Shown here piece after piece: positions 1,603 through 60,969 of a stretch of 64,000 nucleotides of DNA (positions are counted from its first letter, which is position 1; each line of letters opens with the position of its first letter). The notes below the pieces were generated by a model, which did no database searches, was not told the DNA's origin, and saw only the letters and a program-made list of their open reading frames with translations. The position numbers and the translations under genes were made by a program. Source of the DNA: Escherichia coli (lineage in GTDB: Bacteria; Pseudomonadota; Gammaproteobacteria; Enterobacterales; Enterobacteriaceae); assembly GCF_003334315.1 (NCBI RefSeq), contig NZ_QOWR01000013.1. One strand, 5' to 3'.

Positions 1603-2943
1603 TTAACGCACCATGCACGGGCGCTTGTTATCGAACGTCCAGCCAGGAATCAGATACTGCATTCCCATCGCATCGTCACGCGCGCCAAGCCCGTGTTTCT
1701 GATACAGCTCATGGGCTTTCATCACTTGATCCATATCGATTTCTACACCCAGCCCCGGTTTTTCTGGCACCTGTACCAGCCCGCCTTTGATCTCAAACGG
1801 TTCTTTGGTCAGGCGCTGATTACCTTCCTGCCAGATCCAGTGCGTATCAATAGCAGTAATTTTACCCGGTGCAGCGGCGGCAACATGGGTAAACATCGCC
1901 AGGGAAATATCGAAGTGGTTGTTAGAGTGTGAACCCCAGGTCAGGCCAAATTCATGGCACATTTGCGCCACACGTACCGAACCTTGCATTGTCCAGAAAT
2001 GCGGATCCGCCAGCGGGATATCAACGGATTGCAGGGAGAGCGTATGGCCCATTTGCCGCCAGTCGGTGGCGATCATATTGGTTGCAGTCGGTAGACCTGT
2101 CGCGCGACGGAACTCTGCCATCACTTCACGCCCGGAGAAACCTTGCTCCGCACCACACGGATCTTCTGCATAAGCCAGCGAACCTTTCAGGTATTTACCG
2201 ATTTTAATCGCTTCGTTCAGCGACCAGGCACCGTTAGGATCGAGCGTAATACGCGCCTGCGGGAAGCGTTGCGCCAGTGCCACAATAGACTCGGCCTCTT
2301 CTTCCCCGGCCAGTACACCGCCCTTCAGTTTGAAATCGTTGAAGCCATATTTTTCATATGCCGCTTCCGCCAGGCGCACCACCGCATCCGGCGTCATCGC
2401 TTCTTCATGACGCAGGCGATACCAGTCGCATGAGTCATCCGGCTGGCTTTGATACGGCAGCGGCGTGGCTTTGCGATTACCGACGAAGAACAGATAACCG
2501 AGCATTTCGACTTCGCTACGCTGTTGACCATCGCCCAGCAGCGATGCCACGTTTACCCCCAGATGCTGCCCCAGCAGATCCAGCATTGCCGCTTCTATCC
2601 CGGTAACTACATGAATAGTGGTACGTAGGTCAAATGTCTGCAAACCGCGCCCACCAGCATCACGATCGGCAAAAGTATTACGCACCAGCGTCAGAACGTT
2701 TTTGTATTCACCCAGCGTTTTACCTACCACCAGCGGAATCGCATCTTCCAGCGTTTTACGGATTTTCTCGCCGCCGGGAATTTCCCCTACGCCAGTGTGA
2801 CCAGAATTATCTTTGATAATCACAATATTACGCGTAAAGAACGGTGCGTGTGCACCACTCAGATTCATCAGCATACTGTCATGACCCGCCACCGGGATAA
2901 CCTGCATTTCAGTAACAACAGGCGTCGTAAATTGAGAACTCAT
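1603..2943 (-). CDS. gudD: Glucarate dehydratase (enolase superfamily), 446 aa
   Basis: ORF 1603..2967; start moved to [22 protein letters not shown] (ATG 2941-2943, AAGGAC RBS); recognised from memory. Confidence 0.95.
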
Positions 2944-2963
2944 ATTTATGTCCTTTTTCAGAA

Positions 2964-4304
2964 TCAATGACGGCCGAAAACGGGACGTTTACGGTCAAAG
3001 GTCCAGCCGGGGATCAGGTACTGCATCGGACCTGCGTCGTTACGCGCACCGCCAGGCAGACGTTTATAGGCCTCATGTGCCTTTTGTACCTGTTCCCAGT
3101 CCAGTTCCACGCCCAGACCGGGCGCATCAGGAACGGCAATTTTTCCGTTTTTAATCTCCAGCGGATTTTGGGTCAGGCGACAATCGCCCTCCTGCCAAAT
3201 CCAGTGGGTATCGATAGCGGTAGGATTACCCGGTGCCGCCGCGCCCACATGGGTAAACATCGCCAGAGAGATATCGAAATGGTTATTAGAATGGCAGCCC
3301 CAGGTCAGCCCCCAGTCGTCGCAAAGCTGCGCCACACGGACTGCACCGGAAAGCGTCCAGAAGTGCGGATCGGCAAGTGGAATATCTACCGCATTGAGCA
3401 TCACCGCATGACCCATTTCGCGCCAGTTGGTGGCGATCATGTTAGTCGCGACGGGCAAGCCGGTCGCCCGTCGAAATTCCGCCATCACTTCACGTCCGGA
3501 GAAGCCCTGTTCTGCGCCGCATGGATCTTCGGCATAGGTAAGAACATCATTCAGCCCTTTGCATAAAGAAATGGCTTCATCAAGCAGCCATGCACCGTTG
3601 GGATCAACGGTAATCCGCGCATCCGGGAAGCGTTTCTTCAATGCACGAACAGTGTCGATTTCTTGCTCGCCAGGTAACACGCCGCCCTTAAGTTTGAAAT
3701 CTTTAAAGCCGTAGCGATCCTGTGAGGCTTCCGCCAGACGCACAACGGCTTCGCTGTTCATTGCTTTCTGATGCCGCAACTGATACCACTCATGGTTGCC
3801 CGGCGTATTTTCCACATAAGGAAGATCGGTTTTGGTCCGATCACCGATATAAAACAGATAACCGAGGACGGTAATAGCCTCGCGTTGCTTGCCTGGCCCT
3901 AACAGTTCGCAGACCGGAACATTCAGCGCCTTACCTAGCAGGTCAAGCAAAGCGGCTTCCAGCGCCGCCACGGCGTTAACGCGTAATTCAAAGGTCCAGG
4001 CACCTTTACCGAAGGTATCAAAATCGGCGGCCTGATTACCTTTATGCACCTGCTGGACCACTTTATTCAGTCGCGCAACTTCCTGGCCCAGAACCATCGG
4101 AATAGCATCGACAAGCGTCTGATAAATCACATCTCCGCCCGGCGCTTCACCAATGCCGGTATGCCCGGCGTTATCGGTGAGTACCACAATATTGCGGGTG
4201 AAATATGCGTTATGTGCCCCACCAATATTAAGCAACATGCTGTCATGCCCGGCCACCGGAATGACTTTCATATCAGTAATAACAGGACTGGATTGTGTCG
4301 CCAT
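2964..4304 (-). CDS. gudX: Glucarate dehydratase-related protein, paralog of GudD, 446 aa
   Basis: ORF 2964..4319; start at [21 protein letters not shown]; high similarity to the adjacent gudD product along the whole length. Confidence 0.93.
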
Positions 4305-4305
4305 C

Positions 4306-5658
4306 TTATTGCCCCGCAACAGGTTTCAACTCGATACGCTTGATATCGCCCACCAGCACCAGGTAGCTCAGTACCGCGATTAAGGCATGAACACCAACAT
4401 AAATCAGCGCCCCATTAAACGAGCCAGTCGTGCCAACGATATAACCAATTGCGATTGGCGTGACGATGCCAGAAATGTTACCGAACATGTTGAACAGGCC
4501 ACCGGAAAGACCGCTGATCTCTTTTGGCGCGGTATCTGCCATTACTGCCCAACCCAGCGCCCCGATGCCCTTACCGAAGAAGGCCAGCGCCATAAAGCCG
4601 ATGATCATCCACTCAACGTTGACGTAGTTGCAGAACACCATCACCATCGACAGCAACATGCCCATTACGATCGGTGTTTTACGCGCAATGTTCAGCGATC
4701 CCGTGCGGCGCATCAGCCAGTCGGAAATAATCCCACCCAGCACACCGCCGATAAAACCGCAAACCGCCGGAACGGAAGCCACAAAGCCCGCTTTCAGAAT
4801 CGACATCCCGCGTGCCTGCACCAGATAAACCGGGAACCAGGTAATAAAGAAGTAAGTCAGGGCGTTGATACAGTACTGACCGATATAAACGCCGATCATC
4901 ATCCGTGCCCCTAGCAGCTGTTTGATCTGCCCCCACTTCACGCTGAACGGCACTTTAACTTTGGTGTTTTGCTGATCCATATTGATCAGCGCACCACCCG
5001 CGGCGATGTACTCCAGCTCTTTCTTATTTACCCCCGGATGTTGATTTGGCTCGTGGATGACTTTCAACCAGATAAAGCTGATGACAATCCCCAGACCGCC
5101 CATAAAGAAGAAGACGTGTGACCAGCCCACTTCATGCGTCAGCCAGCCCATAATCGGCGCGAAGATCACCGTTGCGAAGTATTGAGCGGAGTTAAAAATC
5201 GACACCGCCGTTCCCCTTTCCTGCGCCGGAAACCAGGCCGCAACAATGCGACTGTTGCCGGGGAAAGATGGCGCTTCAGCAAGCCCGACCAGGAAGCGCA
5301 GCGTAAACAGGGCAACGATAATGCCGAATCCACTAAAGATATCGACGAAGCCTTGCAGCAAGGTAAACATCGACCAGATAAAGATCGACCAGAAGTAGAC
5401 GCGTTTTGAACCAAAACGGTCCAGCAACCAGCCACCAGGGATCTGCCCGATAACATAAGCCCATGAGAAAGCAGAGAACACATAGCCCATTCCCACGGGA
5501 TCAAGGCCGATATCTTTGGCCATTTCCGAACCGGCGATAGAGAGCGTAGCGCGGTCGCCGTAGTTGAAGGATGTGACGATAAACAACATCACCACTATCC
5601 AGTAACGAGCATTTGTGCGTTTTTCCACACTGCTCGCAGCCTGACTTAAAGAACTCAT
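4306..5658 (-). CDS. gudP: MFS glucarate/galactarate:H+ transporter, 450 aa
   Basis: 450-aa ORF rich in hydrophobic helices, MFS-like; head of the gudP-gudX-gudD arrangement. Confidence 0.92.
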
Positions 5659-7671: not shown

Positions 7672-7716
7672 AAAGCAACCTCAATAAGAAAAACTGCCGC
7701 GAAGGATAGCAGGAAT

Positions 7717-8082
7717 AAAAAAAGGGAGCACTGTATTCACAGCGCTCCCGGTTCGTTTCGCAGCATTCCAGCTACTTTTGTTGCTCCCTGCTCATCCTTG
7801 ACAACTTTTCCTCTGGCCTTGCGGCCAATCGTTCATCCTGAACTATTGCTTCCTGCTCACACCACCCCGATGTGATACTTCATCCTGAAGTGTCCCTGGC
7901 CTTCCTGACCCACCGAATCATCCTGACCGGTTCTCATTCTCCATCCTGGAGGTGTCCTTTAACGCGTCCTGCGTCATCCTCTTCGCTTCATCCAGAAGCC
8001 TTTCCCTGAAACACCATCCTGGTGTGTCCTGCAGAAGTGTCATCATCCTGATGTTCACTTCGTTGTCTGACTCCCTGTCGAC
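7717..8082 (-). ncRNA. csrB: CsrB small RNA (CsrA-sequestering decoy RNA)
   Basis: Minus-strand transcript begins GTCGACAGGGAGTCAGACAACGAAGTGAAC (plus strand 8053-8082); at least 9 CATCC motifs on the plus strand (AGGAUG / CAGGAUG on the RNA) plus many AGGA variants; ends with GC-rich hairpin 7724-7749 and U-run 7717-7723. Confidence 0.93.
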
Positions 8083-26253: not shown

Positions 26254-26459
26254 ACTTCCTGAGCCGGAACGAAAAGTTTTATCGGAATGCGTGTTCTGGT
26301 GAACTTTTGGCTTACGGTTGTGATGTTGTGTTGTTGTGTTTGCAATTGGTCTGCGATTCAGACCATGGTAGCAAAGCTACCTTTTTTCACTTCCTGTACA
26401 TTTACCCTGTCTGTCCATAGTGATTAATGTAGCACCGCCTAATTGCGGTGCTTTTTTTT
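26254..26459 (+). ncRNA. gcvB: GcvB small RNA (Hfq-dependent regulator of amino-acid and peptide transporters)
   Basis: Starts ACTTCCTGAGCCGGAACG 7 nt after TATAGT; GU-rich tract GTTGTGATGTTGTGTTGTTGTGTTTG; ends with hairpin GCACCGCCTAATTGCGGTGC plus T8; divergent from gcvA. Confidence 0.92.
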
Positions 26460-29420: not shown

Positions 29421-29608
29421 GGCGAGGTTATCCCTCACCCTAAACGCATAAATGCCTGATGCGCTACGCTTATCAGGCCTACATAACTCCTGCAATATTT
29501 TGGATTTGCATGATTTGTAGGCCGGATAAGGCGTTCACGCCGCATCCGGCATGAACAACGCGCACTTAGTCAATAATCAGGATGTGAGGTTACCCCTCAC
29601 CCTGTCAT
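29421..29608. repeat. REP/BIME-type palindromic units flanked by an 18-bp direct repeat
   Basis: REP units at about 29453-29481 and 29518-29551; GAGGTTATCCCTCACCCT (29424-29441) and GAGGTTACCCCTCACCCT (29586-29603) flank them, 17/18 identical. Confidence 0.7.
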
Positions 29609-30944: not shown

Positions 30945-31021
<77 letters not shown>

Positions 31022-56007: not shown

Positions 56008-59374
<3,367 letters not shown>

Positions 59375-59440
59375 TCAGTAAAAGCGAATGGAGGGAGATT
59401 ACACGAGATAAAGAACGCGAGCGACAGTAAATTAGGTGCG

Positions 59441-59528
59441 AAAAAAAACCTGCGCATCCGCGCAGGTTGGTGCAAGAGACAGGGTACGAAGAGCGTACCG
59501 AATAATCTCACCAATCAATACCTCTGGG
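59441..59528 (-). ncRNA. omrA: OmrA small RNA (OmpR-regulated, Hfq-dependent)
   Basis: Minus strand reads CCCAGAGGTATTGATTGGTGAGATTATTCGGTACGCTCTTCGTACCCTGTCTCTTGCACCAACCTGCGCGGATGCGCAGG plus T8. Confidence 0.92.
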
Positions 59529-59642
59529 ATCTTGATTGTGGTCTGCACGACGACTCTTCGCCAGCGAGAAAACGCAAAGGAATGAAGGGAAATGCAACGA
59601 GGTGTGTAAATTGTCGGTTACTGTTACAGATTGATGACCGGC

Positions 59643-59724
59643 AAAAAAAACCTGCGCATCTGCGCAGGCTGGTGTAATTCATGTGCTCAACCCGAAGTTG
59701 ACTTCACCTATCAATACCTCTGGG
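59643..59724 (-). ncRNA. omrB: OmrB small RNA (paralog of OmrA)
   Basis: Minus strand reads CCCAGAGGTATTGATAGGTGAAGTCAACTTCGGGTTGAGCACATGAATTACACCAGCCTGCGCAGATGCGCAGG plus T8; shares 5' seed and 3' terminator with OmrA. Confidence 0.92.
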
Positions 59725-59937
59725 ATCACCACTTTAGCAACCTGAAGCCAAACGCCACCAGCGGTCAATCGCAACAGCGTTTCGCAAAGTGTAACCAAAG
59801 GTTTGCAATCTCTTTTTTTGTCTTACTTATTTGCGTTTGGCTCACATTCCCACGATGAAAACACGCCACCCCTTGAACCAACGGGCGTTTTCCGTAACAC
59901 TGAAAGAATGTAAGCGTTTACCCACTAAGGTATTTTC

Positions 59938-60969
59938 ATGGCGACCATAAAGGATGTAGCCCGACTGGCAGGCGTTTCAGTCGCCACCGTTTCCCGCGTC
60001 ATTAATAATTCACCCAAAGCCAGCGAAGCTTCCCGGCTGGCTGTGCATAGTGCAATGGAGTCTCTTAGCTATCACCCGAACGCCAACGCCCGTGCGCTGG
60101 CGCAGCAGACCACTGAAACGGTCGGTCTGGTCGTTGGTGATGTTTCCGATCCGTTTTTCGGTGCAATGGTGAAAGCGGTCGAACAGGTGGCTTATCACAC
60201 CGGTAATTTTTTATTGATTGGCAACGGTTACCACAACGAACAAAAAGAGCGTCAGGCCATTGAGCAACTGATCCGCCATCGCTGTGCTGCGTTGGTCGTC
60301 CATGCCAAAATGATCCCGGATGCTGATTTAGCCTCATTAATGAAACAAATGCCCGGTATGGTGCTGATCAACCGTATCCTGCCTGGCTTTGAAAACCGTT
60401 GTATTGCTCTGGACGATCGTTACGGTGCCTGGCTGGCAACGCGTCATTTAATTCAGCAAGGTCATACCCGCATTGGTTATCTGTGCTCTAACCACTCTAT
60501 TTCTGACGCCGAAGATCGTCTGCAAGGGTATTACGATGCCCTTGCTGAAAGTGGTATTGCGGCCAATGACCGGCTGGTGACATTTGGCGAACCAGACGAA
60601 AGCGGCGGCGAACAGGCAATGACCGAGCTTTTGGGACGAGGAAGAAATTTCACTGCGGTAGCCTGTTATAACGATTCAATGGCGGCGGGTGCGATGGGCG
60701 TTCTCAATGATAATGGTATTGATGTACCGGGTGAGATTTCGTTAATTGGCTTTGATGATGTGCTGGTGTCACGCTATGTGCGTCCGCGCCTGACCACCGT
60801 GCGTTACCCAATCGTGACGATGGCGACCCAGGCTGCCGAACTGGCTTTGGCGCTGGCGGATAATCGCCCTCTCCCGGAAATCACTAATGTCTTTAGTCCG
60901 ACGCTGGTACGTCGTCATTCAGTGTCAACTCCGTCGCTGGAGGCAAGTCATCATGCAACCAGCGACTAA
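59938..60969 (+). CDS. galR: Galactose operon repressor GalR (LacI family), 343 aa
   Basis: MATIKDVARLAGVSVATVSRVINNSPKASEASR HTH. Confidence 0.95.
   Translation: MATIKDVARLAGVSVATVSRVINNSPKASEASRLAVHSAMESLSYHPNANARALAQQTTETVGLVVGDVSDPFFGAMVKAVEQVAYHTGNFLLIGNGYHNEQKERQAIEQLIRHRCAALVVHAKMIPDADLASLMKQMPGMVLINRILPGFENRCIALDDRYGAWLATRHLIQQGHTRIGYLCSNHSISDAEDRLQGYYDALAESGIAANDRLVTFGEPDESGGEQAMTELLGRGRNFTAVACYNDSMAAGAMGVLNDNGIDVPGEISLIGFDDVLVSRYVRPRLTTVRYPIVTMATQAAELALALADNRPLPEITNVFSPTLVRRHSVSTPSLEASHHATSD

Follow-up and report, generated by a model that had tools for sequence, protein, structure and literature searches.

Two small RNA genes, omrA and omrB, lie in tandem on the minus strand between aas (ATG at 59353, minus strand) and galR (ATG at 59938, plus strand) in the 64-kb stretch of Escherichia coli DNA that was analyzed (the window; Table 1). 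Positions 59300-60000 match positions 2975961-2976661 of NC_000913.3 (E. coli K-12 MG1655) in 701 of 701 bases. The ncRNA features of that record, omrA (b4444; 2976102-2976189, minus strand) and omrB (b4445; 2976304-2976385, minus strand), project exactly and on the same strand onto 59441-59528 and 59643-59724. The span 59441-59724 runs exactly from the 3' end of omrA to the 5' end of omrB, and the transcription starts, taken as the annotated 5' ends at 59528 and 59724, are 196 nt apart. The omrA gene has the same orientation as aas, and its 3' end lies 87 nt before the aas ATG. The locus is an already known sRNA pair, among the best characterized in E. coli; OmrA is presumably the RNA also called RygA or SraE, and OmrB the one also called RygB.

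Table 1. Features of the omrA-omrB locus, in window positions.
Feature	Position	Strand	Basis or remark
omrA, aas-side copy, 88 nt	59441..59528	-	RF00079 at full length; NC_000913.3 annotation
OmrA 5' conserved block, nt 1-21 (nt 1-9, target-pairing seed)	59508..59528	-	20/21 identical to OmrB
OmrA central hairpin, GGUACG-CUCUU-CGUACC	59483..59499	-	MFE fold; Rfam consensus structure
OmrA intrinsic terminator, 9-bp stem, GGAU loop, U8 tail	59441..59468	-	Terminator scan
omrA -10 hexamer CACAAT (-12 to -7), C at -12 and -13	59535..59540	-	Position and conservation
omrA candidate boxes, distal: TGTAACA (-100/-94), TTTACAC (-82/-76), GTTGCA (-70/-65)	59561..59628 (overall)	-	Conserved, 20 two-copy loci
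omrA candidate boxes, proximal: TTCATTC, TTGCGTTTTC (-49/-40), GCTGG (-37/-33)	within 59561..59628	-	20 two-copy loci
omrB, paralogous galR-side copy, 82 nt	59643..59724	-	RF00079 at full length; NC_000913.3 annotation
OmrB 5' conserved block, nt 1-21, target-pairing seed	59704..59724	-	20/21 identical to OmrA
OmrB central hairpin, CAACUU-CGG-GUUGAG, G-U closing pair	59687..59701	-	MFE fold
OmrB intrinsic terminator, 9-bp stem, AGAU loop, U8 tail	59643..59670	-	Terminator scan
omrB -10 hexamer TAAAGT (-12 to -7), T at -12	59731..59736	-	Position and conservation
omrB candidate boxes: GGTTACACTTTGCG (-72/-59), CTGTTGCGATTG (-53/-42), GCTGG (-38/-34)	59758..59796	-	Conserved, 19 loci

Both genes are matched by the Rfam covariance model RF00079 (OmrA-B) over its whole length (model 1-87 of 87) and above its gathering score of 40, omrA with 96.6 bits (E-value 6e-18) and omrB with 86.1 bits (E-value 2e-15). 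An earlier note, made from the DNA letters, had named the two elements as the tandem paralogous sRNAs OmrA and OmrB, and the covariance-model search and the annotation of NC_000913.3 at the same bases bear this out; no data contradicting the identity were found in the present analysis. The genes had also been expected to escape ORF-based annotation, as they do in PGAP-annotated RefSeq records of E. coli. In the PGAP-annotated complete genomes compared (H7, H11-H26), nothing is annotated over omrA or omrB, and among the E. coli records compared the two ncRNA features are present only in the curated NC_000913.3. Of 5426 complete E. coli genomes, 5424 contain the 701-nt region (at least 99% identity in 5337), and separate searches of the complete genomes returned omrB with its promoter in 5424 and omrA with its promoter in 5417.

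Elsewhere in the window, Rfam gathering scores are exceeded by matches to CsrB (7714-8073, minus strand, 380 bits), to GcvB (26254-26459, plus strand, 199 bits), to ES036/CssrF (a short match at 29475-29517, minus strand, 46.5 bits; gathering score, 37.6) and to a tRNA (30945-31018, plus strand). All are expected in this stretch of the K-12 chromosome.

The two genes share their ends and differ in the centre. Within the first 21 nt, 20 positions are identical, the lone difference being nt 16 (U in OmrA, A in OmrB). The 15-nt motif CCCAGAGGTATTGAT is exact in both copies (59514-59528 and 59710-59724, minus strand) and has no other occurrence in the 64-kb window, even when up to two mismatches are allowed. 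Shuffled sequences contain 0.05 matches on average, and none of 100 shuffles reaches two. The last 35 nt are identical at 32 positions by alignment and by direct counting; the 3' end reads CCTGCGC-G-GATGCGCAGG followed by T8 in omrA (aas-proximal), and CCTGCGC-A-GATGCGCAGG followed by T8 in omrB (galR-proximal). The centres, 32 nt in omrA and 26 nt in omrB, are essentially unalignable. Both conserved blocks were also recovered independently by a direct-repeat finder, their copies starting 196 and 202 nt apart. The earlier description of a near-identical minus-strand 5' seed, near-identical terminators with U8 and a single G/A difference in their shared 3' motif, and a differing middle was accurate in each part.

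A G+C-rich palindrome, a recurrent type of intergenic sequence, makes up part of this similarity, as it would if the resemblance were due to chance or to a generic intergenic repeat (a REP-like palindrome or a shared terminator motif) with no RNA gene. That reading is ruled out by the RF00079 scores and E-values, by the statistics of the 15-nt 5' motif (two sites in 64 kb against 0.05 expected) and by the same architecture, at full length, in at least 47 loci of other enterobacterial genomes.

Compared with dinucleotide shuffles, both RNAs have a more stable predicted fold (z = -2.7 and -2.9). In each, this fold has a largely free 5' end, followed by a central stem-loop and by the terminator hairpin. 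The family 5' end CCCAGAGGUAUUGAU is exact in omrA and omrB, and the predicted probability that nt 1-15 are unpaired is 0.84 for OmrA and 0.52 for OmrB; the mean probability is 0.64 over nt 1-15 against 0.38 in the remainder of the RNA. The centre of OmrB is unlike that of OmrA in sequence, yet it again forms a hairpin. The terminator stems have 9 bp, including six G-C pairs, and are followed by T8. The terminator scan called both on the minus strand only, which fixes the transcribed strand.

Related loci were collected with a scan for the 15-mer seed in one genome per species. The scan gave at least 120 stretches, 47 of which contain a full seed-plus-terminator unit; these 47 loci are a sample ascertained on the exact seed, not a census. 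Forty-five of them come from named Enterobacterales and the other two from metagenome bins labelled 'Proteobacteria bacterium'. Full units were found in Escherichia, Citrobacter, Enterobacter, Kosakonia, Kluyvera, Pluralibacter, Mangrovibacter, Serratia, Edwardsiella, Dickeya, Pectobacterium, Pantoea, Erwinia, Tatumella, Rahnella and other genera, and most related loci are adjacent to aas and/or galR. An Rfam check of the ten most divergent loci confirmed 15 of 15 units. By our own arithmetic, about 500 chance occurrences of a 15-mer are expected in 298 Gb when both strands are counted, and the remaining 73 stretches are therefore probably mostly chance matches in unrelated phyla.

The alignment of 64 distinct units comprised omrA, omrB and 62 further members from other Enterobacterales. 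Nucleotides 1-15 are invariant save for a single copy in which nt 8 is A instead of G, an invariance that is partly due to ascertainment because the loci were collected by exact matching to the seed. In each locus, the seed had to be exact in one copy or more; second copies were free to differ, yet match. The terminator helix has standard pairs in 512 of 512 cells, and compensatory changes occur at three pair positions (27 cells), with U-A replaced by C-G in 5 sequences, G-C by A-U in 17 and C-G by U-A in 5. The covariation score is higher than in any of 500 shuffles, and no pair is changed on both sides in any slid control. The covariation is not circular, since the extraction pattern allowed uncompensated changes. 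The centre varies in sequence and length among the 64 units, and its hairpin was judged by per-sequence folding rather than by column-wise covariation because the MAFFT alignment of the divergent centres is unreliable; 56 of the 64 centres fold at -3 kcal/mol or below (median z, -1.9). Between the paralogues of each of the 23 two-copy loci, identity is 90-100% over nt 1-21, 80-97% over the last 35 nt and 34-73% in the centre. The pattern is thus a property of the family and not an accident of E. coli.

The RNA character of the elements also follows from the way in which they vary. On both strands, mechanical calling gives ORFs of 20-78 aa that overlap the region, but the chance that the repeats are, or belong to, genes for small proteins is practically nil. 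The minus-strand ORFs over the 5' block (59432-59548 and 59679-59798) have GTG or TTG starts that lie upstream of the transcription starts. The only ATG ORF (59515-59682) begins inside OmrB and crosses the OmrB terminator, and its ATG is not conserved, the orthologous positions reading ACTAGAA and ACACGAT. Orthologues range in length from 72 to 110 nt in steps of 1-2 nt, with indels in the centre, so that no reading frame is kept, and conservation that peaks in the first 15 nt together with a covarying helix is the pattern of an RNA.

The GGUG segment (nt 17-20) and its CACC partner show zero changes across the 64 units. This outer stem never varies, so the comparison is evidence neither for that helix nor against it. 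Next to it, the terminator helix readily takes compensated changes in the same 64 sequences, which is the ground for proposing, as a rather doubtful possibility, that GGUG and CACC may be constrained by sequence beyond pairing, e.g., as a second target-pairing or protein-contact module. A role of this kind has already been raised for the 3' 35 nt (PMC2588501), and interaction mapping, in the form in which it is cited in a review (PMC12692685), hints at one. Such a constraint, if true, would concern a known RNA and be partly new at most.

Some loci in the sample depart from the E. coli arrangement. RF00079 copies are about 200 nt apart elsewhere and about 2.0-2.1 kb apart in Pantoea and Erwinia (L030, Pantoea stewartii, 2747-4879; L059; L102, Erwinia endophytica; L076 with L077). 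In P. stewartii (L030), a same-strand ORF of 579 aa (2936-4675) lies between the two Omr copies. It scores 687 bits against the NCBIfam FtsI model NF011685 (cut-off 737), and from this match it looks like an FtsI/PBP3-like paralogue lodged between sibling sRNA genes. The tandem copies of Mangrovibacter yixingensis (L092:1698-1986) are 90% identical, with 73% in the centre, against 75% and 44% in E. coli, and omrA-type promoter boxes are retained by the downstream copy, a combination that suggests that the transcribed part has undergone gene conversion between the two siblings.

The orientation of omrA towards aas, and an adjacency to aas that is conserved across many genera, are also what would be seen if the aas-proximal element were a cis-acting leader or attenuator of aas, with the terminator controlling read-through, and the upstream element a decayed copy. 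This is very improbable. The omrA terminator is strong (9 bp, six G-C, U8) and an alternative anti-terminator fold is not evident. The galR-proximal copy of the unit precedes another promoter and not a gene, and in Pantoea and Erwinia one Omr copy is upstream of a different gene. Action in trans on unlinked mRNAs has been shown genetically by compensatory mutations (PMC2588501), and any read-through into aas would be an addition to, not the function of, OmrA.

The -10 hexamers were located relative to the annotated 5' ends and then checked by conservation. The omrA hexamer is kept as [C/G]ACAAT in most aas-proximal copies, and the upstream, omrB-side copies have TAnAGT-like hexamers, mostly with T at -12. 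A sigma-70 consensus scan of 59200-60100 found no promoter for omrA or omrB and gave one weak plus-strand match inside galR, as is to be expected where promoters depend on an activator and have a weak -35. The C at -12 of omrA is a sigma-S determinant, and omrB, with T at -12, is sigma-S independent (reviewed in PMC12692685).

Phosphorylated OmpR (OmpR-P) activates both promoters in vitro on -114/+50 templates, and an omrA promoter truncated at -60 is not activated, so that -114 to -60 is needed (PMC5175337). In omrB, the changes T-75C and A-68G in box 'B2' lower OmpR activation from 81-fold to 3.3-fold and abolish activation by multicopy RstAB (PMC13425233). Counted from the transcription start at 59724, -75 and -68 are T and A, in and beside the GGTTACA block. 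The upstream regions, which the earlier note had proposed to inspect for OmpR boxes, contain conserved GTTACA/GTTGCA-type sequences at both genes (-100 to -65 in omrA, -72 to -42 in omrB), within the published OmpR-required regions. They are candidate OmpR boxes, on the ground of conserved hexamers plus published mutagenesis of the required regions.

Pairing of nt 1-21 of each sRNA with ompR, cirA and ompT mRNA regions from NC_000913.3 was predicted with RNAduplex. The best predicted duplexes involve nt 1-9 and lie on -19 to -11 of ompR (CCUUUGGG), -19 to -10 of cirA (UACCUCAUGG) and +12 to +20 of ompT (ACUUCUGGG). They coincide with the pairing sites of the sRNA 5' end published from compensatory-mutation experiments, which span -19 to -10 of cirA and +12 to +20 of ompT and, in the ompR leader, overlap the ribosome-binding site (PMC2588501). 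Duplex energies are modestly better than those of shuffled seeds for ompR and ompT (fraction 0.002-0.033); that for cirA is no better than shuffled seeds (0.23-0.28), and the agreement there is positional, not statistical. With short pairings and modest energies, prediction alone is weak evidence and would not have identified the targets. In the published genetics, changing 4 nt of the 5' end removes control of each target that was examined, compensatory changes in the targets restore it, control requires Hfq and RNase E, and repression of ompR is a negative feedback on the activator of both genes (PMC2588501). Discrete RNAs of about 88 and 82 nt have been published for the identical K-12 sequence (PMC2588501; PMC12692685). 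The region of ompR where OmrA and OmrB pair is also covered by an antisense RNA, AsompR (b4842; NC_000913.3 3536438-3536775; L123:3439-3776), which lies opposite the 5' part and leader of ompR.

Two adjacent, independently transcribed minus-strand genes almost certainly encode the Hfq-dependent RNAs OmrB (59724 to 59643) and OmrA (59528 to 59441), each with its own promoter and terminator and with a seed that acts on mRNAs. Gene identity, family, terminators, conservation and covariation, promoters and predicted pairing come from the present analysis; transcription, the dependence on Hfq, RNase E, OmpR and sigma-S, and pairing in vivo come from the literature on the same sequence. In the proposed mechanism, each gene would be switched on at its own promoter by the response regulator OmpR, with a further sigma-S dependence of omrA via -12C and other inputs into omrB, namely RstA-RstB when in multicopy. 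Each transcript would stop at its own intrinsic terminator, the hairpin and U8 tail of which would serve as the usual Hfq-binding module. The single-stranded 5' end would then base-pair with many mRNAs (ompT, cirA, fecA, fepA, csgD, flhDC, btuB, dgcM, flgM, and ompR) over short complementary segments that lie at their ribosome-binding sites or close to them, and this pairing would block translation and lead to RNase E-dependent decay of the mRNA. Since ompR is among the targets, OmrA and OmrB would form a negative feedback loop on their own activator.

The earlier note had further proposed that the duplication was kept for shared target recognition. This holds in so far as the seed is shared, which explains the overlapping regulon, and 5'-end mutations have the effect described above (PMC2588501). 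The promoters are distinct and separately conserved and the centres are distinct, so the pair has probably been kept for differential regulation and some copy-specific targets, and not only for redundancy. This fits the view now prevailing in the literature, in which each sibling integrates its own signals and has a few targets of its own. OmrB responds to RstAB (PMC13425233). OmrA, not OmrB, impairs growth in glucose minimal medium, according to a preprint the title of which puts this down to inhibited translation of phosphoenolpyruvate carboxylase.

The single-copy species sampled mostly have an omrA-like transcript behind an omrB-type promoter (L027, L028, L037, L099, L114), and others have a plain omrB (L068, L113). 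Single-copy species have been stated always to retain the omrB promoter (PMC13425233), and these seven loci agree with that paper. In Siccibacter colletis (L080:3940-4460), the lone Omr gene between aas and galR (one Rfam match) has an omrA-type promoter, with a TGTAACA box and a CACAAT -10 hexamer, and not the omrB type. Judged from these motifs, S. colletis looks like an exception to the rule.

Through OmrA and OmrB, the EnvZ-OmpR envelope sensor is connected to the composition of the outer membrane, the uptake of iron, motility and the formation of biofilms, as is established in the literature. The locus itself offers nothing new and its value is validation only: a pair of sibling sRNAs was recognizable from raw sequence alone, on the right strand and with exact ends, despite the missing automatic annotation. 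Compared with OmrA and OmrB of E. coli K-12, the pair has the same bases, strand, lengths, seed, terminators, promoters and aas/galR flanks, and there are no differences.

Sibling sRNAs with a shared seed and separate promoters are also known from other bacteria, including Qrr1-4 of Vibrio and PrrF1/2 of Pseudomonas. Like OmrA and OmrB, these are local duplicates that depend on Hfq and have a conserved pairing region and overlapping regulons; their sequences are unrelated to those of OmrA and OmrB. OmrA and OmrB differ from them in having the pairing region at the extreme 5' end and promoters that have diverged into distinct sets of boxes. RybB, the regulator of which is sigma-E, MicC and MicF belong to other families with other regulators and other seeds, and they are not tandemly duplicated. 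What they have in common with OmrA and OmrB is a single-stranded 5' end that pairs with the initiation regions of mRNAs for outer-membrane proteins (PMC2588501).
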